Counted from the stretch's first letter, positions 1 through 11,395 are shown. The stretch: 11,395 nucleotides of DNA from a virus (IMGVR_UViG_2585427777_000024:1-11395), one strand, 5' to 3'. Notes: generated by a model not told the origin, from the sequence alone. Program-made: numbers and translations.

Positions 1-1236
1 CTACGATAACCGCGCATTCAACATGGCTATCTGTTCGTCGTTCATGTCATCAATCCACATACCGTAAATTTCATACACCATCTGCGCAGTTTCATGCCCC
101 ATTTGGCTGGCTATAAATGCCGGGTTCGCTCCTGCCGTCAACAGCCAGCAGGCAAAAGTATGCCGCGTATGGTACGGATTACGGCGGCGAATACCAGCAC
201 GTTTTACTGCTGCATTCCACCTTGCCCCCAAACTGCTTACCGAGTAATAAGGTTTTTGTTTTCCGTTACACACCCTGGGCATGAAAACAAAATGCAGTTT
301 TTGCTTTTCGGTTCTGCCGTACTCCCGATGATAAAAGGTGATTTCGCTTTTGCGATGATGCCCGGTCAGTTTGTATTGCTCCTTCAGTGCTTCAAGAGCA
401 GGCTGCAGTAGTGTTACTGTTCGGATCCCGGCATTTGTTTTTGGGGGACCGAACATATCAAGTATCGTCAGGTTTCTTCTGACATTCACTATTCCCTTTT
501 CGAGATCCACATCCTCCCACGCCAGAGCTGCCAGTTCCCCGTGACGAAGTCCTGAGTAAACGGCAAATTTCCACAAGTTCTGGCTCTGTCCTTTTTCACT
601 TTCCATTAATGCATTGAATTCTGTTTTAGATAACGGATCAGGCTTTATTCTGTTTCGCTGTAATTTTTTTACTCCTTCAAATGGTTTGGTTGATATAAAT
701 CCCGACTGATACGCAAAACGCAACAGCGAACAGAGCAGGGCGATATAGTTATCAACTGTGCGCACGGTTCTTCCTTTTTTGTTGGATCTTGGATTATCCA
801 GGTAAAGCGTTTCTCCATGCAGCAGTTCATTCCGGTAGTTTAAGATATCGCTATAACGAATATGTGATATCGGGGTACTTTCACAAATTATTATTCTGAG
901 TGTTTTTAATTGTGATTTCGTTTTCTTCATTGTGTTTGTTGTTAACTCTGTCTCTTTAATTTTTGTCCAGATATCACAAAGCTCTCCGAACGTTTTTATG
1001 ACTCTCGTTGTCACCATTTTTGCCCCAGTGCTGGACTGGGGAAAACGTCTTAAATACTCAAATTCACCGGAGTTTATTTCATGAACTATCAGCGATCTTA
1101 AATTTCCGGCCTTTTTAATATTACTGTTTGTAATCTCCCAGCCTTTTAATGTTTCCCGACATCGTTTTCCTCGAAACATGAACCAGATGCGAATGTATCT
1201 ACCTCTAATCTCGACACCTGTTGGTAATTTAGACAT
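1..1236 (-). CDS. intR: Prophage tyrosine integrase (Rac IntR-type), 411 aa
   Basis: Full-length ORF; C-terminal HTRHTFA...YEIYGMW is a tyrosine-recombinase box II / catalytic Tyr region. Start is separated by 1 nt from the xis stop (TGAtATG). Sequence recalled as Rac IntR. Confidence 0.93.
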   Translation of the reverse strand: MSKLPTGVEIRGRYIRIWFMFRGKRCRETLKGWEITNSNIKKAGNLRSLIVHEINSGEFEYLRRFPQSSTGAKMVTTRVIKTFGELCDIWTKIKETELTTNTMKKTKSQLKTLRIIICESTPISHIRYSDILNYRNELLHGETLYLDNPRSNKKGRTVRTVDNYIALLCSLLRFAYQSGFISTKPFEGVKKLQRNRIKPDPLSKTEFNALMESEKGQSQNLWKFAVYSGLRHGELAALAWEDVDLEKGIVNVRRNLTILDMFGPPKTNAGIRTVTLLQPALEALKEQYKLTGHHRKSEITFYHREYGRTEKQKLHFVFMPRVCNGKQKPYYSVSSLGARWNAAVKRAGIRRRNPYHTRHTFACWLLTAGANPAFIASQMGHETAQMVYEIYGMWIDDMNDEQIAMLNARLS

Positions 1237-1237
1237 A

Positions 1238-1453
1238 TCATGAGTCTTTGATAAACTGATTTATCTTTGGATAGTTGTACCAGATAATCCCTCGTTTGCT
1301 GTCTGGCTTACCTAAAGGAGATACTCGTTTGAAGTGGAAGCCCTCCACCCAACAGTTCTGGCGGTATGCTTCAATTTGTCTGGCCCCCAGACCAGTGCGA
1401 AGCATCAGGCCGTATTCAACCATCCACTCTTCATTAAAGATTACTTGTGCCAT
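1238..1453 (-). CDS. xisR: Excisionase-like small protein (YdaQ/XisR), 71 aa
   Basis: ORF immediately upstream of int on the same strand. Start chosen at the internal ATG (1453) preceded by AGAGGTGA with a 4-nt spacer; the longest ORF extends to 1477 (79 aa). Confidence 0.7.
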
Positions 1454-1531
1454 CGCATCACCTCTGGCAGGCGCCAATGTTAGACTGAAATTGACGCCCG
1501 ATGTTGATTATTAATAATCAGCTATGAAGTT

Positions 1532-1741
1532 TTAATTTGAATACAATGCAATTCTCGAGGACTGAAGTTTCTCGCAATTAAAATTTATCAGTTTTACTTT
1601 CTGCTCTCTGGAAACGCCTGCTTCTTTTTTACCTGAGAGCATTTTTTCGCATTCTGATTTCGTTAGTTTAGATTTTGAATATCTTGTCCAGTTAGTAGGA
1701 GTGCCACCTTCCTTTTCAATAGTGGCGGTAATTTTATACAT
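1532..1741 (-). CDS. ydaC: Small prophage protein YdaC-like, 69 aa
   Basis: Start chosen at the ATG preceded by GGAGGTG with a 5-nt spacer; this ATG overlaps the ralR stop (ATGTATAA). The longest ORF (93 aa, to 1813) would overlap ralR extensively. Confidence 0.65.
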   Translation of the reverse strand: MYKITATIEKEGGTPTNWTRYSKSKLTKSECEKMLSGKKEAGVSREQKVKLINFNCEKLQSSRIALYSN

Positions 1742-1928
1742 GAACACCTCCATTATTATTTCCAGTGGTTCGTTTATTCCATCTTTCGAGTGCTTCTTTT
1801 TCACTTCCACCATAACCGGTTCGGGATTCGCATCCGTTACACTTCGCTCGGTAATATCCTGAAATGGCTTTCACCGTTACTGATGGACAACCACAAAATG
1901 GACATGGTTTAACATTGTCATATCTCAT
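1734..1928 (-). CDS. ralR: RalR/Lar restriction-alleviation protein and type I toxin (DNase), 64 aa
   Basis: Translation MRYDNVKPCPFCGCPSVTVKAISGYYRAKCNGCESRTGYGGSEKEALERWNKRTTGNNNGGVHV matches recalled Rac Lar/RalR, including Cys-rich zinc-ribbon-like motifs. In-frame upstream ATGs give 68- or 77-aa alternatives. Confidence 0.85.
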   Translation of the reverse strand: MRYDNVKPCPFCGCPSVTVKAISGYYRAKCNGCESRTGYGGSEKEALERWNKRTTGNNNGGVHV

Positions 1929-1984
1929 AATTTTTCTCATAAAAAATATTTCAAGTTGGCGGTGCATTACACCGCCAGGCTGAA

Positions 1985-2794
1985 TTATTCCTCTGAATTA
2001 TCGATTACACTGTATTCCCCGGTTAATACAGAGGAATCTGCAGGATCGATTGTCAGTGGTTCCTTTTCATCCATTGATACTGCACGCTGGATCTCAATTG
2101 ATACGGGCAGATATTTGAACAGGCGACGAATAGCCGTTTTCTTTGCCATTTCTTCCCAGTGAGTTACCCACGGCCCGTTATTACCAGCTTTACTCAGGCT
2201 GCGCACCAGCTCAATCTGTTTGCGCGTCATAACTTCAAACTGAGTACCTCCGTCTTTCAGTCTTGCGACAGCATAGACGTGGGTAACCGGGGCATCTTCG
2301 TTTTCTCCCGGGCGGTGTATTAACTTTTCATCAAGGCCAAATTCGAAGCTAAACTCGTCACCTTCACGGACAACACGGGCTGACAGGCTGGCGATTTGAC
2401 CAGAACGGCGAGCCAGATCAATCATGCCGCGATAGCCAATGATTAGCTGAACGTTCTTTTTACCGCTCTTTTCGTTTTTATTACCAAAAGGCAGTAAATA
2501 TGCATGACCGAGGGCGCTACCTGGCTCAAGTCCGAGCTGTGAACACTGTACGATCGCACTGACAAAACTCATAGTGTCACAGTTTCCTAACGCCGGAACT
2601 TTACGAATTTCTGTGGTGGCGATACGGATCATACGTTCAGCCGTCATATGGCGTGGAAGAGCTGCTGCCAGTTGCTCTTTCATTGATGGCTGGTTAATAA
2701 AACTAATCACGTCGCTATTTTTAACTGCTGCTGGTGCACGGTTTCCCTGAGTTTTTTGCAGATCGGCTTTTGCGATTGGTGGTTGCTTAGTCAT
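1985..2794 (-). CDS. recT: RecT single-strand annealing protein, 269 aa
   Basis: Translation from [16 protein letters not shown] matches recalled RecT. AAGGA lies 8 nt upstream of this ATG. The start overlaps the recE 3' end by 8 nt. Confidence 0.95.
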
Positions 2795-5387
2795 TTGCAT
2801 ATTCCTTAGCCCAGCGGGGCAGTGATAATGTCTTAATAGCTGGCCATTCATCGGTATTCAGGCAGTCAGACAGGGTTCGCAGATTGCGGTGATATTCCTG
2901 TTGACCTGCCAGTTTTGCTTCTTCGCCCATCATGAAAATTTCAACCGGATAACGTCCGCATTCAATAGTTGTGCTGGCAACCAGAAAAACGAAAGTTGGC
3001 TGCACTCCAAACTGTGCTTCATAACCGTCACTGTAGAATGCATCCTGAACGTGATAGCGGTAGTCGTAATAAGCGGTTTTGAATCGTTGAATATCCGCCG
3101 TAGTTTTCACGTCCATGATCCAGTGAAATTCAGGGATAATTTTGTCCGGACGGCACCGACACAAAATTCCTGTTTCAGGATCTTCCCAGTAAATTGATGA
3201 TTCAGCGTGTCCGGCGCTTTCAACAAGCCATTGCCCCAGCGGCAAAGCCATAACGCTTTGATACATGAGTTCAATTTTCCGGTCTTCTTCCGCAGTGATA
3301 ACCGTTTTTCCTGTGCTTGCGCATTCCATCAGAAACGCTTTCTCTTCTTCTTTTCCGGCGTTTGTACGGCGGTTAAATTCAGGTGCTACGATAAAGCGGT
3401 TACTGAATTCTTCCGGTTCAAGTACCCGGCAGTGGAAAGCAGTTCCTAAATCGAGCGTTTTTGTCTTTGTGGTGTCCACGGGGGCATTTTTACGCCACAA
3501 ATATAGTGCCGGAGTATCAGCAATGTCATCGAGCTGAGACTTACTGATACCGGGACCCGCGTGGTAATTCTCATTCGAAATTCTGTAATAAATACCTGGC
3601 TCTATGTCTTCTACGATTACGGGATCTGCGACTTCGCCAGTTTCATCACTGCAATCGCGATGCGGATCGCTGCCAGCATTCTCATTGTGCGGATGTTCAG
3701 CGCCTTCCATTTCCTCCGGATCATTTTCCTTAGCTTCAACCTGACTCTTTTCATCGAATGTTTCCTGGTATGTTGCGTCGCCCATCACCGCACCACAGTC
3801 AGGGCAGTTATCCCCGCCAGTCTGGCCGCAGGCATTGCAGGCTATTTCCGGTTCCTGTTGCACTACTGGCTCAGGTTGATTCATATCTGGGCTGGTTTTT
3901 TCCGTTTCTGGCTGGTTCTGGTACACACAATCGCGAGTCTGGATCCCCTTTACCCATTTCGGATCGTTCGGGTCGCTAATTCCGTCAACAAATTCACCAC
4001 GTGATGCAGCAAGCAATTTATCGGCATCGACAGGATTTTTTGATGGAATGTTTTTCCGGGCTTCATGGAGTTCTGCCCGCAGTTCCTGATATTTCGCATC
4101 AACAGAATTTACCTGTGACTGAGCATCCAGCGGCTGCGTGTCCTGATGATGTTCAGTTGCGTCCGGTTCCATTGTTTCAGCCTCTCCCTGTTCAACTGCC
4201 GTTGTTCCAGATGGTTGCGGTTTTTCTTCATCATCCTGTTTTCCTTCTTCTGTTACTCGCTGCGGCATCGGGGCAGAGGAGCGACCGCAGGCAATATCCA
4301 CGATTTCCGGATCAGGGTTGGCATGATCGGTTTCAGTCAGTACTTTGTTCAGATATTCAGTGACGTGCGCGGGGATGACCTCGATCCCAATTGGTGCTTC
4401 TTTTACGGACGCAACCACGATGGCGCGGGAATAATCCAGCCCGCCAGGCATGGTGATGAATTTGTCGCGGAAAACAGAAAAGGGCGGTTTATTTTCAGCG
4501 ATAATTTCCTCAATGCGTTTAGCGTGTGCCGGATGAAGGTTATAGATGTCCAGATCCATTGAACGGGCCAGTACGCCAGTGGCTACGTCGCGCGCCAGTG
4601 ACGTCAGATCGTGTACGAAACCTTCGCCGCGATCGGTGAGGTTTCCGCCGCCAGCATTAGCACCGGAAGCCGTGCGAGTGATGTGTGAAACACGATTACC
4701 CTTCATCCATTCTTTTGTCAGCAGTCCTCGATCGGTGTAGTCAGCGTTCAGGTATGCTTCGAAAAAAGCAGTTATCAGTCCCAAGTTTGAATTACCAGGA
4801 TTAGGGAAAACTTTGTCAGTGTCACGAACCAGTTTGTGGAGTTCGCGAATTTCCAGCGGGTCGAGCAGGCTGGTTTTGTGGGAAACAGCCAGGGCAGTAA
4901 CAGCCGGTAGTTCTTCAGCCCGAGCAATGTGTAATGCCTGGAGTCCGTCGCGTGAAACGTGCGTTACCGGTTTTTCGCTGCCGTGTTGAGCAAGCCAACG
5001 AATGGGCAGTTCCTGGCCAGAAATTGGGAGTAGCATATTCTCCTCAATCTCAGTCATGTCTTCGCCGTTGACGTTGGTATTGCCTTGATAGTGAGCGTTG
5101 TCTGGTGCTGCTCCCGGTTTTAGTTCCCATGTCATGGAGTCTTTGCTGAGTTGATAGCGTTCACTCCAGGTAAAATCGATCTCACCTTCAGCGGGCAGGT
5201 CATTAACGACAGGAAAATTCGTGGCAACAGCTTTAAAATAGCTGCTCAGTTTTTTACCTGACTTAACGATCAGGTAGTCCAGAGTGGCACAGGTCGATTC
5301 AAAATCGTTGCTTGCCCACAGGACGACGTCAGGTTCACCGGATGATTTTTTCGCTTTCCGTAACAGGAAGAGTGGTTTTGTGCTCAT
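2787..5387 (-). CDS. recE: RecE exonuclease VIII, 866 aa, full length
   Basis: Uninterrupted 866-aa ORF; N-terminus [14 protein letters not shown] and C-terminal nuclease domain recognised as RecE. No frameshift or internal stop. Confidence 0.95.
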
Positions 5388-5460
5388 TGTTTTTTAACCT
5401 CAACTCAGATTAAAATTCGTTTTGTTCAGTGAATGATCTTGCCGGATACACACTGTTCAT

Positions 5461-5481
5461 AGCCTGCGCCATACGCAGGCT
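5461..5481 (-). other. Perfect 8-bp-stem hairpin (AGCCTGCG-ccata-CGCAGGCT) between racC stop and recE start
   Basis: Seen directly. On the transcribed (minus) strand it sits 7 nt after the racC stop and is not followed by a U-tract, so it is not a canonical intrinsic terminator in that direction. Confidence 0.5.
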
Positions 5482-5488
5482 ATTTCTT

Positions 5489-5764
5489 TCAGATTTCACC
5501 TTTTAATTTCATTGCAATTAGAGTTGCCAGAAATTCGGCTTTTTTTTCTGCGGGCAGATTCTTTCCGATATGCACCAGGCACATTTTTTTGACACCTTCA
5601 TCAAGTGTTTTTACGTTGCCTGATGGACCATCGATATCAACCACAGTGAATGGGGTTTCTTTATTTTCTGTTTTAATTACGTAGCCAATGCGCTTTCCTT
5701 CCAGATTCACCTCGTGAACAATGTCATCGGTAGTTACAACAGTGGCTTCATAATTGGTAATCAT
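5489..5764 (-). CDS. racC: RacC, 91 aa
   Basis: Translation from MITNYEATVVTTDDIVHEV matches recalled RacC. The ATG at 5764 is preceded by AAGGAG. The longest ORF extends to 5812 (107 aa). Confidence 0.85.
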   Translation of the reverse strand: MITNYEATVVTTDDIVHEVNLEGKRIGYVIKTENKETPFTVVDIDGPSGNVKTLDEGVKKMCLVHIGKNLPAEKKAEFLATLIAMKLKGEI

Positions 5765-5838
5765 GTTTTTCTCCTTAATTAAGGTTGAGCGAATACCTGC
5801 CATTTCTGGCATAAATTCAGTTTCGAATAGTCAATTAA

Positions 5839-6009
5839 TTAAAGTTCATGTGCCATCTGGTCTTTTTCGGCACAAGCTTCACTGCAATATTTTCTCGGTT
5901 CGTCTTTTGATAAAATCCCGTGCATGAAGTGAAGCATTCTTTCAATAGCTTTGCTTTCTTCAACGTCTTTTTTGCAAAGGTGGTAAGCACATTTTATTTT
6001 CTTAGTCAT
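5839..6009 (-). CDS. ydaE: YdaE small Cys-rich (zinc-binding-like) protein, 56 aa
   Basis: Not in the supplied ORF track (<60 aa). Manual translation gives [56 protein letters not shown]. The start overlaps the kilR stop by 1 nt (TGATG). Confidence 0.75.
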   Translation of the reverse strand: MTKKIKCAYHLCKKDVEESKAIERMLHFMHGILSKDEPRKYCSEACAEKDQMAHEL

Positions 6010-6230
6010 CACCATGACTCCGCCTTTACAGGTAAACCATCACGACCGAGGAAGACTTTAATCATGCGGTCAGTAATGCTTGTTTTTGTGGTCAGGTTAC
6101 GAATATATAGTTTTCGCTTTTTAATATTGTTTGCCGAGGCAATATATGTCCGGCCTTCATGAAGAACATAATCGCCAGGAGTCACACACTGACGTGGTAT
6201 TTCATCAGTTCCGAAGTGATGTGCAATCAT
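6009..6230 (-). CDS. kilR: KilR cell-division (FtsZ) inhibitor, 73 aa
   Basis: Translation from [29 protein letters not shown] matches recalled KilR. The ATG at 6230 is preceded by GGAG with a 6-nt spacer. The longest ORF adds 4 codons. Confidence 0.85.
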
Positions 6231-6401
6231 AATTATCTCCATTTTTACAAATGAACTTTGTTGATGCGGTGCCTGGTGCCTCCAGGTGACTGCAACCAGT
6301 TAACAATTACAGTCGGCTTTCCCACCCAAACCAATAAGGACTAACATGACTTTTAACTGTGCCACGTGCGCTTAGCCGCATTCACCGCATCACAAAATTC
6401 A

Positions 6402-6453
6402 CTTTAAAAAGGGCGGACATCAGCCGAACTTCAAGAAAAAAACTGATGCCGCC
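6402..6453 (-). terminator. Terminator-like stem-loop on the minus strand, ~170 nt upstream of kilR
   Basis: Inverted repeat GGCGG(A)CATCAG ... CTGATGCCGCC (11 bp, one bulge, 19-nt loop). On the minus-strand RNA the stem is followed by C-UUUUU-AAAG. On the plus strand there is no U-tract after it. Confidence 0.4.
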
Positions 6454-6671
6454 AGGACTACACACAGCAATGTCGTTATTTACAACCGGAGGCGCACTCC
6501 CACCATTTAAATTTAACAGACAAGACCGACTCTTTATGGATATCGGAAATGCGCCTTCGTGTTGTGCCCGGTTTTATTTCACCACCTCCGGGCTTCGGTG
6601 GTCTCGGCTATACCCCTACAGCGAGAGCTTGTGTTAACATTTCAATACCCTTACAGTTGAGAGTTATTGAT

Positions 6672-7160
6672 ATGTTGGATGTATTTACTCCATTGTTGAA
6701 ACTTTTTGCTAACGAGCCACTCGAAAGACTTATGTATACGATTATCATTTTTGGTCTCACTCTCTGGCTGATACCGAAAGAGTTTACTGTCGCATTCAAT
6801 GCTTATACTGAAATACCTTGGCTCTTTCAGATTATCGTTTTTGCCTTTTCTTTCGTGGTCGCCATTTCCTTCTCAAGATTGCGAGCACATATTCAAAAGC
6901 ATTATTCATTACTACCAGAGCAACGAGTATTGCTTCGTTTATCTGAGAAAGAAATCGCTGTATTTAAAGATTTCCTTAAAACAGGAAATCTTATTATCAC
7001 TTCTCCTTGCCGTAACCCGGTTATGAAAAAATTAGAACGGAAGGGCATCATTCAACATCAGAGTGATAGCGCAAACTGTTCTTATTATCTCGTCACCGAA
7101 AAATACTCCCATTTTATGAAGTTATTCTGGAACAGCAGGAGTAGACGTTTTAATCGTTAG
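6672..7160 (+). CDS. sieB: SieB superinfection-exclusion protein, 162 aa, membrane
   Basis: Translation from MLDVFTPLLKLFANEPLERLMYTIIIFGLTLWLIPK (hydrophobic N-terminal half) matches recalled SieB. The longest ORF begins 41 codons upstream (6549); that extension looks non-coding (Pro/Gly-rich). Confidence 0.8.
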   Translation: MLDVFTPLLKLFANEPLERLMYTIIIFGLTLWLIPKEFTVAFNAYTEIPWLFQIIVFAFSFVVAISFSRLRAHIQKHYSLLPEQRVLLRLSEKEIAVFKDFLKTGNLIITSPCRNPVMKKLERKGIIQHQSDSANCSYYLVTEKYSHFMKLFWNSRSRRFNR

Positions 7161-7312
7161 CTTACTGTGTGCTTCTCCAACCATCGGCGCGCACCAGTTT
7201 CGGTTTTAAATGTTTTGCTTTTGGTATACGTCATGGCAGTGAACGTTCCATCCTGGTTGGGAAACACGCCGTACACCAGAGATTCGTTGTTGCCAAGATC
7301 GATAGTATCCAT
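7157..7312 (-). CDS. ydaF: YdaF-like small protein, 51 aa (alternative 78-aa form starting at 7393)
   Basis: Convergent with sieB; stops overlap by 4 nt. The internal ATG at 7312 is preceded by GAGGTCAGC; the upstream ATG at 7393 also has a GAGG 9 nt ahead. Identity is by synteny plus recalled length. Confidence 0.55.
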   Translation of the reverse strand: MDTIDLGNNESLVYGVFPNQDGTFTAMTYTKSKTFKTETGARRWLEKHTVS

Positions 7313-7397
7313 GCTGACCTCATTTCCCCTTAACGCCGGGGTAGCGGAACAAAAACCTGCTGCATAGTTATTAAAGTTGAACCCTGCCGTCATGTTC

Positions 7398-7535
7398 TTA
7401 CGCCTCGGGCTGGCTACTTAACCCCTGACCACTGCCTGGTAACTCGAAGTATTGCCCTGCGTTCTGTGGGGCGGGGTGGGTTGGTAGGTATATAATGTAC
7501 TTTGTGTTCATTGATGTAAAGTACTTTAAGTACAT
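7398..7535 (-). CDS. Small ORF of 45 aa (37 aa from second ATG at 7511), possibly ydaG by position
   Basis: Manual translation MYLKYFTSMNTKYIIYLPTHPAPQNAGQYFELPGSGQGLSSQPEA. No convincing SD. The stop lies 4 nt before the ydaF 78-aa start. Called by synteny only. Confidence 0.3.
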   Translation of the reverse strand: MYLKYFTSMNTKYIIYLPTHPAPQNAGQYFELPGSGQGLSSQPEA

Positions 7536-7536
7536 T
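7494..7536. promoter_or_regulatory. Inverted pair of AATGTACTT motifs with a central GTACTT-T-AAGTAC palindrome, just 3' of racR
   Basis: AATGTACTT at 7494-7502 (+) and its reverse complement at 7528-7536. The same ATGTACT core recurs twice in the racR-ydaS intergenic region. A TATAAT hexamer sits at 7491-7496. Confidence 0.4.
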
Positions 7537-7610
7537 TTGTGTGTAAAAAAATGAGATGGGATAAAGTGAAGCACAAACCCGGAGGGGGACGCTACCGGAT
7601 TTATGCTGGT

Positions 7611-8030
7611 TTAAGAGGCTTTTTGTTTTTTCTTTCGTGCTAGCTCTTCGTAAATTGCATTGTACTTCTGTTTTTTCTCCTCAAGAGTTTTTAAAAGTTC
7701 ATCTGTCTCACTGTCAGGGAGCTCGTCCAGAAGGTCAATGATGATTTTTTGTCTTGGATTTAACTCCTGATAGAAACGTACCTGTCCACTTTCTTCTGTA
7801 TCCTCTCCCAAAAGATAGGTTGGTGTTGTTCCAATGAGTGTTGCTAATTCCCTTAATTTCTCTCGGCGAGGAATTGTTTCGCCATTAAACCATTTGCTAA
7901 CCGCTTTTGGTGTTAATTTCATTCGACGGGCAATTTCTGCCTGCCTTCCATGTTGTTCATAACCAGCGTTTTCACAGGCTAGCGCAAGCCTACTGGCGAA
8001 CTCTTTACGCGCTTTATCTTCATGAACCAT
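7611..8030 (-). CDS. racR: RacR-type prophage repressor, HTH (XRE/CI-like), 139 aa
   Basis: The N-terminus has an HTH-like segment (QAEIARRMKLTPKAVSKWFNGETIP). Divergent from ydaS, as cI is from cro. No in-frame upstream ATG or GTG before the stop. Confidence 0.8.
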   Translation of the reverse strand: MVHEDKARKEFASRLALACENAGYEQHGRQAEIARRMKLTPKAVSKWFNGETIPRREKLRELATLIGTTPTYLLGEDTEESGQVRFYQELNPRQKIIIDLLDELPDSETDELLKTLEEKKQKYNAIYEELARKKKQKAS

Positions 8031-8109
8031 AAGTTCAATGATATTCGCTCTTGAATGTACTGTCAGTTCTGTTATAGCATGTACTCAAAGTTCACATTGT
8101 GAGGGTGAT
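8031..8109. promoter_or_regulatory. racR-ydaS divergent control region with two direct ATGTACT repeats
   Basis: ATGTACT at 8055-8061 and 8079-8085 (24-bp spacing). Candidate -35 TTGAAT (8051-8056) and -10 TATAGC (8073-8078) for ydaS. Strong SD GAGGG 5 nt before the ydaS ATG at 8110. Confidence 0.5.
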
Positions 8110-8364
8110 ATGAACCAGAAAACACTTGAAGATGTAATCAAAACTGTTCGCGTTTCTGTTGTGGCCGACGTTTGTGGTGTCAGCCAAAGAGCAATCTACA
8201 AATGGATGGATAACGGAAAATTGCCTCGCACAGAATATACCGGCGAAACAAATTACGCTGAAAAAATCGCTCATGCATCAAACGGATTATTTTCTGCTGA
8301 TGTAATTTTAACTATTGGCAGAAATAAAACTACTACGAAAAAGCTGATGGGAGTTGATTCATGA
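8110..8364 (+). CDS. ydaS: YdaS Cro-like HTH protein, 84 aa
   Basis: Start at 8110 (GAGGGTGATATG). The longest ORF (from 8038) would begin only 7 bp from the racR start, leaving no room for divergent promoters. HTH-like segment VADVCGVSQRAIYKWMDNGKLP. Confidence 0.8.
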   Translation: MNQKTLEDVIKTVRVSVVADVCGVSQRAIYKWMDNGKLPRTEYTGETNYAEKIAHASNGLFSADVILTIGRNKTTTKKLMGVDS

Positions 8365-8783
8365 AAATCAAGCATGAGCACATCGAGTCAGTGTTGTTAG
8401 CCCTGGCAGCCGAAAAAGGGCAGGCATGGGTAGCCAATGCCATTACTGAAGAATATCTGCGCCAGGGGGGCGGCGAATTGCCCCTGGTACCAGGCAAGGA
8501 CTGGAATAATCAGCAGAATATCTATCACCGTTGGTTGAAAGGTGAAACGAAAACGCAAAGAGAAAAAATTCAGAAGCTGATCCCAGCAATTCTGGCAATC
8601 CTTCCGCGCGAGCTGCGTCACCGACTCTGCATCTTCGATACCCTGGAACGCCGTGCATTACTGGCGGCGCAGGAAGCGTTAAGTACGGCAATTGATGCGC
8701 ATGATGATGCAGTCCAAGCCGTTTACCGGAAAGCGCATTTCAGCGGCGGCGGGTCTTCCGACGATTCTGTCATTGTTCATTAA
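8361..8783 (+). CDS. ydaT: YdaT (CII-like, toxic when derepressed), 140 aa
   Basis: Start overlaps the ydaS stop (ATGA). Position and size fit Rac ydaT. Confidence 0.8.
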   Translation: MKIKHEHIESVLLALAAEKGQAWVANAITEEYLRQGGGELPLVPGKDWNNQQNIYHRWLKGETKTQREKIQKLIPAILAILPRELRHRLCIFDTLERRALLAAQEALSTAIDAHDDAVQAVYRKAHFSGGGSSDDSVIVH

Positions 8784-8795
8784 GCAAAAGTTTCC

Positions 8796-9653
8796 ATGCT
8801 GTTTGTGCTTATTCTAAGCCACCGGGCAGCATCATACGGGGCAATTATGGCCGCATTACCATACATGCAACTGTACATAGCTGATTACCTGGCTGACACC
8901 ATGCATTTGTCAGCAGAGGAGCATGGTGCGTATTTGTTGCTGATGTTCAATTACTGGCAAACAGGAAAGCCAATACCTAAAAACAGGCTGGCAAAAATTG
9001 CCCGTCTGACTAACGAGCGATGGGCTGATGTTGAACCATCCTTGCAGGAGTTTTTTTGCGATAACGGCGAGGAATGGGCGCATCTTCGGATTGAGGAAGA
9101 TCTGGCATCAGTCAGGGAAAAATTAACCAAAAAATCAGCCGCAGGAAAAGCATCTGTTCAGGCCAGAAGAAGCAGAAAGGAAGCAGATGTTCAAACAAAA
9201 CAAGAGAGAAATTTAACAGGTGTTCAAACAGATGTTGAAGTGGTGTTTGAACATGATGTCAACACAAAGGCAACTAATAAAGATACAGATAAAGATCTAA
9301 AAACAGATCCCCCCCTAAATCCCCCCCGGGGGAATCGAGGTGTCAAAAAGTTTGACCCTCTGGATATTGCTTTGCCGAACTGGATTTCTGTCTCGCTTTG
9401 GCGTGAGTGGGTTGAATTTCGCCAGGCATTGCGAAAACCGATTCGAACGGAGCAGGGCGCTAACGGGGCGATACGGGAGCTGGAAAAATTCCGCCAGCAG
9501 GGTTTTTCACCTGAGCAGGTGATTCGACACAGCATCGCCAATGAATACCAGGGCTTGTTCGCGCCGAAAGGTGTTCGACCTGAGACGTTACTCCGACAGG
9601 TTAACACCGTCTCGTTACCGGATAGTGCGATCCCGCCAGGCTTCAGGGGGTAA
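8796..9653 (+). CDS. ydaU: YdaU replication-initiator (lambda O-like) protein, 285 aa
   Basis: Full ORF; a possible alternative start is at 8847 (ACGGGG 5 nt upstream). Contains internal iteron-like repeats and a Pro-rich linker, as in lambda O. Confidence 0.8.
   Translation: MLFVLILSHRAASYGAIMAALPYMQLYIADYLADTMHLSAEEHGAYLLLMFNYWQTGKPIPKNRLAKIARLTNERWADVEPSLQEFFCDNGEEWAHLRIEEDLASVREKLTKKSAAGKASVQARRSRKEADVQTKQERNLTGVQTDVEVVFEHDVNTKATNKDTDKDLKTDPPLNPPRGNRGVKKFDPLDIALPNWISVSLWREWVEFRQALRKPIRTEQGANGAIRELEKFRQQGFSPEQVIRHSIANEYQGLFAPKGVRPETLLRQVNTVSLPDSAIPPGFRG
9184..9335. repeat. Candidate prophage replication origin: iteron-like TGTTCAAACA repeats, an AT-rich stretch, then C7-TAAAT-C7-G5 homopolymer tracts
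   Basis: TGTTCAAACA at 9188-9197 and 9221-9230, inverted copy TGTTTGAACA at 9244-9253, partial CAGATGTTGAA at 9229-9239. AT-rich 9262-9300. C and G runs at 9309-9332. All lie inside ydaU. Confidence 0.45.
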
Positions 9654-9659
9654 CTGACC

Positions 9660-10622
9660 ATGAAAAATATTGCGACAGGCGACGTTCTTGAACGTATCCG
9701 CAGACTGGCCCCGTCACATGTAACCGCGCCATTCAAGACGGTAGCGGAGTGGCGCGAGTGGCAACTTTCCGAAGGCCAGAAACGTTGTGAGGAGATCAAC
9801 CGTCAGAATCGTCAGTTGCGGGTGGAAAAAATTCTGAATCGCTCTGGCATCCAGCCATTGCACCGCAAATGCTCGTTTTCGAATTACCAGGTGCAGAACG
9901 AAGCGCAGCGATACGCGTTGAGTCAGGCGAAATCCATCGCTGATGAACTGATGACCGGGTGTACAAATTTTGCGTTCAGCGGAAAACCTGGTACCGGGAA
10001 GAACCACTTAGCGGCAGCTACTCGCGGCCTTAATAAGAAAAACTCTAAGCCGACAATAATCAATAAAGATTACAGTGTAGATACACTACTATCAGAGCTA
10101 TTTTTGAATGGCGCACACATGGAGCAACCCAACGTACACAACGTTTCTGAGGGAAACATGAAGTTCTATGATGAATGCCATGCTGGATTAATCAGACCAA
10201 TACCCGCTCCAATAGGCGCGTCATACGATGAAGAGATCACAATTAATTCTCCAGATTGGCAAAAGCTCGCGTGTGTAGCTTTACGCCGCTATCAGTCGAA
10301 GGAATGTCATGACGGAATGCAATGGGATACAACCGATCATGGTTGGACTGATGTAATCGCGTATCCATTCGTCGAAGAAATACAATCAATGGATAATAGT
10401 GGTTATCGACAATGTTTAGTTGGGCTGGTCACAATAAACAATTCAAATGCAAATTCTCCGTACCTATCTACCGTTTGGATACATCCATTTTATCGCAGGA
10501 GAGGGTTATTAAGTAAGTTATGGCCAAAATTACAAGAGTTATATGGAAGTAACTTCGAAATTGAGCGACCTAATGAAAATATGAAAGCATTTCTGAAAAG
10601 TGCGAAACACGCAGATTACTAA
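9660..10622 (+). CDS. Chimeric ORF, 320 aa: N-terminal ~120 aa of a DnaC/IstB-like helicase loader (YdaV) through the P-loop GKPGTGKN-HLAAA, fused in frame to ~200 aa of unrelated AT-rich sequence
   Basis: N-terminus MKNIATGDVLERIRRLAPSH... recalled as Rac YdaV. After HLAAA (about 10017-10022) the protein has no Walker B or sensor motifs. Hand-counted 60-bp samples give ~52% GC before the junction and ~37% after. Confidence 0.7.
   Translation: MKNIATGDVLERIRRLAPSHVTAPFKTVAEWREWQLSEGQKRCEEINRQNRQLRVEKILNRSGIQPLHRKCSFSNYQVQNEAQRYALSQAKSIADELMTGCTNFAFSGKPGTGKNHLAAATRGLNKKNSKPTIINKDYSVDTLLSELFLNGAHMEQPNVHNVSEGNMKFYDECHAGLIRPIPAPIGASYDEEITINSPDWQKLACVALRRYQSKECHDGMQWDTTDHGWTDVIAYPFVEEIQSMDNSGYRQCLVGLVTINNSNANSPYLSTVWIHPFYRRRGLLSKLWPKLQELYGSNFEIERPNENMKAFLKSAKHADY
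10158..10622 (+). CDS. Possible independent gene inside the chimeric ORF: 154-aa GNAT-like acetyltransferase candidate
   Basis: Internal ATG at 10158 preceded by GAGGGAAAC. Motif YLSTVWIHPFYRRRGLLSKL resembles GNAT motif A (beta4-alpha3, R-x-x-G-x-G/A-like), but the region after the motif is shorter than typical. Assignment is by eye only. Confidence 0.35.
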   Translation: MKFYDECHAGLIRPIPAPIGASYDEEITINSPDWQKLACVALRRYQSKECHDGMQWDTTDHGWTDVIAYPFVEEIQSMDNSGYRQCLVGLVTINNSNANSPYLSTVWIHPFYRRRGLLSKLWPKLQELYGSNFEIERPNENMKAFLKSAKHADY

Positions 10623-10733
10623 TTTATGAATCAGTCTGTGGAGTTAGAGTTGGTGTGAACAAGTAGGGTAAGAGCCTCAACGTGATGCTATGCCGACCTG
10701 CTCCCTGAGAATTCACACAGAAGGCTGCTAGCA

Positions 10734-11024
10734 ATGTCTGCAGATCGCTCAAAGCGGACTAGAAGGTTAGCTTGCGTCGGACTTGGCGTATTTAAAGAAG
10801 TGCTGGTGGTGACTGGTTGTTGTGTTCCATTTCTACAGAACAAAATCACAGAAACTATACCCAATAGTTGTATCTCATCAATGATGAGACAGCCTCATAT
10901 TTATCAGGACTGGTGTACGTCCAATACAGGAGGTTGTCGTGCTGGTTCTCAAATGTGCGCTGGCTATTGCAGCTGTAATGGCAATTTATTGTCTTGCTGT
11001 TGTTCTTATGGATCGCTTTTCTGA
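10734..11024 (+). CDS. Hypothetical 96-aa ORF with a Cys/Gly/Ser-rich C-terminus (12 Cys)
   Basis: The only long open frame in 10623-11035 (open from 10686). Weak SD. The Cys-rich tail overlaps a better-supported +1-frame hydrophobic peptide and has T-rich first codon positions, so at least the 3' part may be non-coding. Confidence 0.25.
   Translation: MSADRSKRTRRLACVGLGVFKEVLVVTGCCVPFLQNKITETIPNSCISSMMRQPHIYQDWCTSNTGGCRAGSQMCAGYCSCNGNLLSCCCSYGSLF
10873..10889. promoter_or_regulatory. 17-bp perfect palindrome TCTCATCA-A-TGATGAGA
   Basis: Seen directly. It lies ~40 bp upstream of the AGGAGG SD at 10928-10933. The 1-nt centre argues for a dimeric protein-binding site rather than an RNA hairpin. 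Confidence 0.4.
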
Positions 11025-11028
11025 TTGA
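10939..11028 (+). CDS. Candidate 29-aa hydrophobic (single-TM-like) peptide, GTG start: (M)LVLKCALAIAAVMAIYCLAVVLMDRFSD
   Basis: Consensus SD AGGAGG (10928-10933), 5-nt spacer, GTG at 10939. First codon positions are G-rich (13 of 29), unlike the overlapping frame. It ends 8 bp before the hok promoter -35. Confidence 0.35.
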   Translation: MLVLKCALAIAAVMAIYCLAVVLMDRFSD

Positions 11029-11035
11029 TTTTATA

Positions 11036-11064
11036 TTGGCGAGGTAACGGGAGTTAAGTAGAAT
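11036..11064 (+). promoter_or_regulatory. Candidate hok/mok mRNA promoter: -35 TTGGCG, 17-bp spacer, -10 TAGAAT
   Basis: Hexamers at 11036-11041 and 11059-11064. The predicted start (~11071) precedes GCTTGAGGCT, which resembles the 5' end of plasmid R1 hok mRNA as recalled. Confidence 0.4.
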
Positions 11065-11124
11065 GGCTGCGGGTGCTTGAGGCTATCTGTCTCAGGCATG
11101 AACACCAAAGGCAGATAGAGAAAA

Positions 11125-11226
11125 GCCCCAGTTAACATTACGCGTCCTGCAAGACGCTTAACATTAATCTGAGGCTCAATCTATGAACGGCAAATCTAGG
11201 TTAGCCTCTTACGTGCCGAAAGGCAA
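11125..11226 (-). ncRNA. Candidate Sok-like antisense RNA with its promoter (-35 TTGCCT at 11226-11221, -10 TAACCT at 11203-11198), antisense to the mok translation-initiation region
   Basis: Inferred from hok/sok architecture and weak promoter hexamers with 17-nt spacing. The RNA 3' end was not located, and no clear terminator was found. Confidence 0.3.
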
Positions 11227-11395
11227 GGAGAAGCAGGCTATGAAGCAGCAAAAGGCGATGTTAATCGCCCTGATCGTCATCTGTTTAACCGTCATAGTGA
11301 CGGCACTGGTAACGAGGAAAGACCTCTGCGAGGTACGAATCCGAACCGGCCAGACGGAGGTCGCTGTCTTCACAGCTTACGAACCTGAGGAGTAA
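11183..11395 (+). CDS. Mok-like reading frame, 70 aa, in-frame N-terminal extension of Hok
   Basis: ATG at 11183 preceded by GAGGCT with an 8-nt spacer. The 70-aa frame is co-terminal with hok. Confidence 0.5.
   Translation: MNGKSRLASYVPKGKEKQAMKQQKAMLIALIVICLTVIVTALVTRKDLCEVRIRTGQTEVAVFTAYEPEE
11240..11395 (+). CDS. hokD: Hok/Gef-family type I toxin, 51 aa, sequence of HokD (RelF)
   Basis: MKQQKAMLIALIVICLTVIVTALVTRKDLCEVRIRTGQTEVAVFTAYEPEE matches recalled HokD/RelF. AAGGAG lies 9 nt upstream. The window ends at its stop codon. Confidence 0.9.
   Translation: MKQQKAMLIALIVICLTVIVTALVTRKDLCEVRIRTGQTEVAVFTAYEPEE

Follow-up and report, generated by a model that had tools for sequence, protein, structure and literature searches.

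Up to its replication genes, the viral DNA stretch IMGVR_UViG_2585427777_000024:1-11395 (11,395 nucleotides, hereafter the window) follows the Rac prophage of Escherichia coli K-12. Inside ydaV the likeness breaks off, and beyond an unrelated block the window ends in hokD, a toxin gene that in K-12 belongs to the prophage Qin. Does this break mark a place where a Rac-type phage exchanged modules with another phage, and with it a recombination hotspot at the edge of the replication module, as the initial annotation proposed? On base-level comparison with related prophages the answer is no: the breakpoint was left by a 3,178-bp deletion and is not a point of module exchange.

Judged by its gene content, the window covers the left arm of a Rac-type lambdoid prophage of E. 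coli, together with its replication region; the prophage is integrated by ttcA. JOST01000149.1 (assembly GCA_000713855.1) is 100% identical to it, and in this source contig ttcA, a gene of 311 amino acids (aa) with a PF01171 match that is the Rac attachment site, abuts intR. The integration genes intR and xisR adjoining ttcA, together with the recET-kilR-sieB early-left arm, place the element in the Rac type. The parts were identified by a list of open reading frames (ORFs), Rfam, alignment with K-12 and the RefSeq annotation of a near-identical locus. Alignment with K-12 Rac (E-value 0, not a chance pattern) gave 99.8% identity at positions 1-7303 and 99.3% at 8355-10020. The gene order is kept, namely intR, xisR, rcbA, ralR, recT, recE, racC, ydaE, kilR, sieB, ydaF, ydaT, ydaU and ydaV', so that the Rac order up to ydaU was read correctly from the start; only the immunity patch differs.

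The break in ydaV

Homology to ydaV stops at base 10020, in codon 120, directly 3' of GKPGTGKNHLAAA, and from base 10019 the window matches the 3' 60% of an unrelated gene for a 333-aa protein (WP_000354966.1, hereafter hyp2). The joint can thus be read directly, to the base. A break inside ydaV just past the P-loop, followed by unrelated cargo, is what the initial annotation described, and that description holds. Compared with the Rac prophage of NCTC10444, 3,178 bp are missing, comprising the 3' part of ydaV, DUF1627, DUF977, a gene we call hyp1, and hyp2 up to codon 133. Because ydaV and hyp2 lie one frame apart and 3,178 equals 3n+1, the joint is in frame and leaves a single fusion ORF (Table 1).

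Intact YdaV has 248 aa, with a Pfam IstB/DnaC-like domain at residues 44-221. The YdaV part of the fusion consists of the helicase-loader N-terminus and the Walker A motif (GKPGTGKN) only; it does not hold a full AAA+ domain and matches just positions 1-126 of the 248-position helicase-loader profile. With ydaV cut at codon 120 of 248, the ydaT-ydaU-ydaV module is no longer intact. From Hyp2, the fusion keeps the whole predicted C-terminal domain of GNAT fold (about residues 175-330). The break falls inside the AAA+ domain just past Walker A on one side and within a predicted strand of hyp2 on the other.

The G+C content (GC) drops across the junction from 52.6% in ydaV' to 40.0% in hyp2', which agrees with the compositional difference expected for the block past the break. 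Taken alone this discontinuity is weak evidence, since 500-bp GC values span 0.37-0.54 throughout the window.

The junction was found in none of 5,426 complete E. coli genomes. The exact 320-aa fusion protein is encoded by 15 contigs, taken from isolate and metagenome assemblies (NCBI, ENA, Logan) that are independent of one another. These contigs are 99.9-100% identical across the whole window where they overlap, and the junction is therefore a real, natural allele of one clone and not a recurrent recombination point. We also considered a joint made by an insertion sequence (IS) or a site-specific recombinase; this was rejected, as every base of the flanks is accounted for by ydaV and hyp2, with no extra sequence between them.

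hok/sok in Rac-type prophages

Behind the cargo, the window does carry the expected toxin gene, as part of a sok/mok/hokD locus at 11071-11395. K-12 Qin matches the window solely at 11226-11395, with 170 of 170 positions identical (hokD and 14 nt), and in this sense hokD was rightly called a Qin gene. It is, judging by the comparison of complete genomes, not foreign to Rac-type prophages. In fuller Rac-type prophages at ttcA the order is ydaT, ydaU, ydaV (248 aa), DUF1627 (full-length ydaW), usually DUF977, cargo, hokD or a DUF1971 gene, and the nin/Q genes. We counted this linkage with a synthetic query made of five copies of 8355-10018 and four copies of 10745-11395, for which 80% coverage demands a Rac block and a hok block within ~6 kb; known positives matched at 100% in 9 pieces. 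At least 287 complete genomes (a lower bound, since 176 records reached a limit of 40 pieces each) combine the Rac ydaT-ydaU-ydaV module and, no more than ~6 kb downstream, a hokD block, compared with 722 that have at least 80% of the Rac block alone, both counts being approximate. Further records with a diverged ydaU but with ydaV/DUF1627 also carry hokD.

The full Rac block without hok (the 76% coverage class) belonged to K-12 or laboratory strains in all four sampled records. Compared with full-length relatives, K-12 Rac loses homology after 450 bp of ydaW, and it has neither DUF977 nor the cargo slot, hok or the nin/Q genes; a deletion from inside ydaW to rz removed them along with the lysis genes. 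The absence of hok from K-12 Rac is therefore derived. A ydaV-to-hok order common to Rac-like prophages as their ancestral state, free of any compositional break, would have spoken against the initial annotation; the order is indeed common (the same 287 genomes or more), and the compositional break is nevertheless present.

The hok locus of the window is complete at its 5' end. With RF01794, its leader and Sok-complementary region reaches 110 bits (gathering score 59) and covers model positions 1-157 of 157. The promoter-like site TTGGCG-17-TAGAAT upstream is probably the promoter of the hok/mok mRNA. The mokD-type frame and hokD end at one common stop codon, as do mokC and hokC of K-12. Additionally, we observed a candidate 29-codon hydrophobic ORF (VLVLKCALAIAAVMAIYCLAVVLMDRFSD) in the spacer, at 10939-11028 on the plus strand (stop included), within a 296-bp block (10745-11040) that is conserved 5' of hok in both right-arm types. 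This candidate has a GTG start 5 nt past AGGAGG and is unannotated in RefSeq relatives.

The 3' side looks different. In the source contig, beyond the window, similarity to other hokD loci runs out 23 bp 3' of the stop codon, within the hairpin GGCGGGGGAGAATCCCTCGCC. When the 224 bp past hokD were compared without gaps, the result looked random, and a gapped comparison identified the end of IS421 (IS4-family) as the cause. This IS421 end is directly observed 20-23 bp 3' of the hokD stop, in the hairpin of the hok 3' untranslated region (locus L006, 11756-11960, which is 20-224 bp past the 3' end of the window), and every draft contig stops there because of it. An intact 3' untranslated region, with the fold-back element by which full-length mRNA is kept inert, is thus missing from the source contig. 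Since this region is cut, the hok locus is probably deregulated or inactive. The position of IS421 is identical to that in the unrelated Rac prophage of GCM74 (L004), which points to a preferred target or to selection for loss of hok activity. Pedersen and Gerdes are said to have reported in 1999 that several K-12 hok loci were inactivated by IS elements just downstream of hok; by analogy, the present locus probably no longer works as a killer system.

Comparison of hok alleles indicates which module the gene travels with. Over 10745-11395 the window is 100% identical to AF44, 98.0% to UTI89 and 96.6% to Res13, the three sampled DicB-type (Qin-like) prophages, and over 11051-11395 it is 97.4% identical to UTAK-15, a Rac-type prophage with a DUF968-RusA-Q right arm. 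The hok block reaches only 90.6-93.4% in three Rac-type prophages where hok stands directly before a DUF1367-DUF1364-DUF1133 arm. Across nine sampled loci, the pattern suggests that the hok allele follows the right-hand nin/Q module and not the left arm. The window carries the allele that accompanies the DUF968-RusA-Q right arm, the type also present in K-12 Qin and UTI89-type prophages.

On the left, the hok module is bounded at 11040-11043, at the -35 region of the promoter-like site. In NCTC10444 and O78-3 (L003/L005) window homology ends at 11040 and an opposite-strand DUF1971 gene takes the place of hok/sok, and in UTAK-6 (L020) homology begins at 11043. This change at the same place in several prophages marks hok/sok as a discrete, swappable unit.

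History of the junction

A clue to how the window arose comes from the prophage of LR-28. Positions 10019-11395 are 100% identical to LR-28 and to the DicB-type prophage of AF44, and in LR-28 this block belongs to a Rac prophage at ttcA, where DUF977-hyp1 precedes it and trkG follows. Mismatch counts in LR-28 change from Rac-like to DicB-type-like within DUF977; the DicB-type homology continues to 357 bp past hokD, where a separate deletion joins Rac rz'/trkG. LR-28 and the window lineage would share a recombinant ancestor from which each has decayed independently. Its Rac prophage (L001, 5926-11000) shows at least three private deletions, xisR::ydaU', ydaV'::DUF1627' and hyp92'::rz'.

We consider it about 80% probable that the window results from a single illegitimate deletion of 3,178 bp within Rac, in a prophage that already carried hyp1-hyp2 and a hok of the DUF968-RusA-Q type, and hence from a history of two steps. 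An ancestor common to LR-28 and the window lineage would have gained DUF977'-hyp1-hyp2-hok by homologous exchange with a DicB/Qin-type prophage, after which the two lineages would have undergone different deletions. The cargo of the window lineage before its deletion would have been the two-gene, AT-rich hyp1-hyp2 cassette. The deletion would then have fused ydaV codon 120 to hyp2 codon 134, with loss of the AAA+ core, DUF1627, DUF977, hyp1 and the N-terminal domain of Hyp2.

What remained would be a grounded prophage. Its repressor/cro switch, recET, kilR, sieB and ralR/RalA are intact and its excision genes are present; because the helicase loader is destroyed, it presumably cannot replicate after induction. 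The cargo cassette would be dead, and the fusion ORF is most simply seen as a by-product, with transcription expected only when the early-right operon is derepressed. Such a prophage is of an ordinary, decaying Rac type.

Some observations weigh against the two-step deletion history. An undeleted parent, with the full Rac left arm and hyp1-hyp2-hokD, occurs in none of the complete genomes; the best matches of the parent search stop at 11040 or are without 10019-10744. Since no parent was found, the history rests on LR-28, itself a carrier of several deletions. Every contig of the source lineage ends at IS421, so that the right-hand side is unseen, and the 287 of 722 figure is approximate, as it comes from a multi-copy synthetic query. 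The preserved frame could signal selection, yet one third of deletions are in frame by chance.

The proposal that the ydaV breakpoint itself is a recombination joint between Rac and a Qin-like prophage, marking a hotspot between replication and accessory genes, draws on the identity of the right block with AF44 and with Qin hokD. The hyp2'-hokD block is present in 191 complete genomes, and the three non-Rac contexts inspected among them are all DicB-type prophages; O78-3 carries a Rac and a DicB-type prophage 143 kb apart in the same orientation, so an opportunity for exchange exists. All the same, we find this origin of the joint unlikely. The joint offers just 2 bp of homology and is unique to one lineage, which does not fit a recurrent hotspot, and a direct joint between prophages in that orientation needs a large duplication or rearrangement. 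LR-28 holds the identical block within Rac, flanked by DUF977-hyp1 and trkG, so the block was in Rac before ydaV was cut. UTAK-15, moreover, has an intact ydaV followed by hok with the same HokD protein and the DUF968-RusA-Q arm.

It is still harder to see the in-frame YdaV(1-120)::GNAT fusion as a selected new gene, for example one that tethers a DnaB-binding domain to an acetyltransferase. The frame is kept over 320 codons, the ydaV start and operon position are retained, the predicted GNAT-fold domain is whole and the allele occurs in several samples; set against this, the frame has the one-in-three chance mentioned above, the carriers are one clone over 11.4 kb, the break cuts an AAA+ domain and a predicted strand, and the partner gene hyp1 is lost. 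That the junction is an assembly chimera, or that the window state is ancestral and the relatives carry an insertion, hardly deserves belief, even though the source is a short-read draft contig and complete genomes lack the junction. An identical junction on 15 contigs assembled independently from isolates and metagenomes, at a joint with a 2-bp overlap only and no repeat to mislead an assembler, led us to reject a chimera. An ancestral window state was rejected because both flanking genes are truncated versions of genes that are conserved at full length in relatives.

The cargo slot and the known prophages

If ydaV is not the variable point, where does the cargo enter? DUF977 matches the PHROG 'Ren-like exclusion protein', and the slot behind it therefore corresponds to the ren-ninB boundary of lambda. 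After DUF977 or, where this is absent, after DUF1627, we found seven different contents 5' of hok: a NACHT protein; a DUF262 protein (PADLOC HEC-06, E = 4e-221) with a TPR protein; DUF262 with an AAA ATPase and a hypothetical protein; two Sll1717-family P-loop ATPases; Ea22/DUF551 genes; a string of small genes; and hyp1-hyp2. Conserved flanks and interchangeable content that includes known defence genes make this slot a hotspot for defence genes and other cargo. The initial annotation was thus right to expect morons or defence genes at the boundary of replication and accessory regions, and wrong in placing the hotspot at ydaV: the true variable boundaries are downstream of Ren-like DUF977 and where the hok module begins (11040-11043). 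In the literature we searched, no named defence hotspot at a lambdoid ren-ninB or Rac-Qin slot was found.

GC values along this region are 52.7% for ydaV, 50.7% for DUF1627, 46.5% for DUF977, 36.1% for hyp1, 39.1% for hyp2 and 50.1% for the hok module. The hyp1-hyp2 cassette (L005, 14957-16936; L016 and L017, 7625-9604) differs by 0-1 mismatches per 200 bp between Rac-type (NCTC10444, O78-3) and DicB/Qin-type prophages (UTI89, AF44, Res13), while its flanks, DUF977 and the spacer, differ by 5-17% between the two types. This near-identity suggests a recent spread of the cassette.

The Hyp2 family comprises 53 gammaproteobacterial clusters (Escherichia, Citrobacter, Enterobacter, Aeromonas, Shewanella, Vibrio). 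The AlphaFold model of Hyp2, built from 24 sequences (mean pLDDT 78), predicts an N-terminal alpha/beta domain (1-137) and a C-terminal domain, joined by a disordered linker. In a fold search, ranks 1-38 of the 50 PDB matches listed were acetyltransferases, weak matches with E about 1e-3 and target TM 0.4-0.5. The Pfam Acetyltransf_1 score of 19.9 bits is below the cut-off of 20.7; some database relatives are named GNAT. Hyp1, of 320 aa, has a sub-threshold match to a HEPN/RES N-terminal domain only. Neither protein has a significant PADLOC, NCBIfam or PDB sequence match, and the PHROGs they match are of unknown function only.

In Aeromonas (L024), a 319-320-aa gene, the length of hyp1, stands 15 bp 5' of a hyp2 relative, with the spacing seen in E. 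coli; the pair lies on a relaxase-bearing (mobilisable) element beside SIR2 and cREC genes. In Vibrio (L022), a hyp2 relative lies among genes for HsdR (type I restriction), Mrr and HipA. A tentative reading, which we would not put at even odds, is that intact hyp1-hyp2 may be an uncharacterised two-gene defence or toxin-antitoxin module and its slot a lambdoid defence hotspot comparable to that of P2. Such a role fits because the slot is common to NACHT and HEC-06 genes and because hyp2 relatives have SIR2 and restriction neighbours. Of this pair, the window retains no more than the final 200 codons of hyp2.

Table 1. Features of the window, with positions counted from its first base.
Feature	Position	Strand	Basis or remark
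intR, Rac integrase	1-1236	-	99.8% to K-12 Rac
Rac early-left arm	1238-7312	mostly -; sieB and RalA on +	ORFs, RefSeq annotation of near-identical locus, K-12 alignment
xisR	1238-1453	-	
rcbA	1532-1741	-	
RalA small RNA (antitoxin RNA)	1557-1735	+	Rfam 225 bits, full model length
ralR	1734-1928	-	
recT	1985-2794	-	
recE	2787-5387	-	
racC	5489-5764	-	
ydaE	5839-6009	-	
kilR	6009-6230	-	
sieB	6672-7160	+	
ydaF	7157-7312	-	
Immunity patch, allele other than K-12 racR/ydaS	~7487-8354		without K-12 Rac nucleotide match
Helix-turn-helix repressor, 139 aa	7611-8030	-	
cro-like helix-turn-helix gene, 84 aa	8110-8364	+	
ydaT	8361-8783	+	PF06254 / PF07120 matches for ydaT-ydaU module
ydaU	8796-9653	+	replication module 8361-9653
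In-frame fusion ORF, YdaV(1-120)::Hyp2(134-333), 320 aa	9660-10622	+	
Deletion junction	10019-10020		dinucleotide TA common to ydaV and hyp2 (2-bp microhomology)
Spacer hyp2-hok, 418 bp	10623-11040	+	
Promoter-like site	11036-11064	+	TTGGCG-17-TAGAAT
hok mRNA leader and Sok-complementary region	11071-11245	+	Rfam RF01794 'sok'
mokD-type ORF, 70 codons, in frame with hokD, common stop codon	11183-11395	+	PF01848
hokD, 51 aa	11240-11395	+	PF01848 (Hok/Gef family)

Elsewhere the window is that of a familiar prophage (Table 1). The RalR/RalA pair (1557-1928) is intact and forms a second RNA-antitoxin system, of type I, besides hok/sok. The immunity allele of the window is present in 6 of the 8 Rac-type prophages whose immunity region was viewed, and the K-12 racR allele was also found in the DicB-type prophage of AF44 (L017). 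In UTAK-15 (L021, 2942-5112), O26 and other strains (best matches H171-H180), ydaU of Rac is split by an IS3-family element and ydaV is intact; this is another independent route to inactivation of the same replication module.

K-12 Rac shares with the window the ttcA site, a near-identical intR-to-ydaF arm and the 5' part of ydaT-ydaU-ydaV, and both are decayed by deletion. They differ in the immunity allele and in the deletion itself, which runs from ydaW to rz in K-12, while the window lost the part between ydaV codon 120 and hyp2 codon 134 and kept hok. The hokD (relF) of K-12 Qin has an identical coding sequence in the same relative place, between early-right remains and the DUF968 (ydfU)/Q genes. 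There, however, relBE replaces the upstream part and no sok/mok leader is left, whereas in the window promoter, leader and mok part are all complete, and an IS421 end follows shortly past the stop. According to PMC6379469, the ORF in K-12, ancestrally of about 70 codons, was cut to 51 by the integration of relBE. The DicB-type prophages of UTI89, AF44 and Res13 carry DUF977, hyp1, hyp2 and hokD in the same order, but their left arm holds dicB, ydfA-D and another repressor and replication gene, and their cassette is intact.

In comparison with O-P-ren-ninB of lambda, a likeness that rests on gene position and the PHROG match, ydaU/ydaV take the O/P position, DUF977 is Ren-like, and cargo and hok precede the nin genes, at a classic boundary between modules; the cargo here is much larger than that of lambda. 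Module-level mosaicism is thus real in the window, as first annotated, although of the standard lambdoid kind, which is pervasive according to Juhala et al. 2000 as cited in PMC6379469. A fixed slot with interchangeable defence genes is also known from the P2/P4 hotspots (PMC9122126) and an E. coli pangenome screen (bioRxiv 10.1101/2022.05.12.491691); the present slot differs in lying in Rac/Qin-type lambdoid prophages, and in the window its content is a dead remnant. Enrichment of hok in prophages is documented (bioRxiv 10.1101/2025.08.07.668861). For hokW-sokW of the Stx2 prophage Sp5, whose HokW is 44% identical to R1 Hok, a role in phage release was tested (PMC8621323), while the window locus is known from sequence.

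Nothing in the window lies outside known biology, and the mildly novel lead is the hyp1-hyp2 cassette together with the slot between DUF977 and hok. A by-product of the analysis is a map of this slot in Rac/Qin-type prophages, from Ren-like DUF977 to hok, with at least one uncharacterised cassette besides the known defence genes; the cassette is testable, though not from the broken copy in the window. More generally, the results correct an inference centred on K-12. Many fuller Rac-type prophages carry hok/sok just 5' of the nin/Q module, and both hokD as a Qin gene and a Rac without hok are products of K-12's own deletions. A break seen against K-12 can thus be a private deletion scar instead of a joint of phage recombination.

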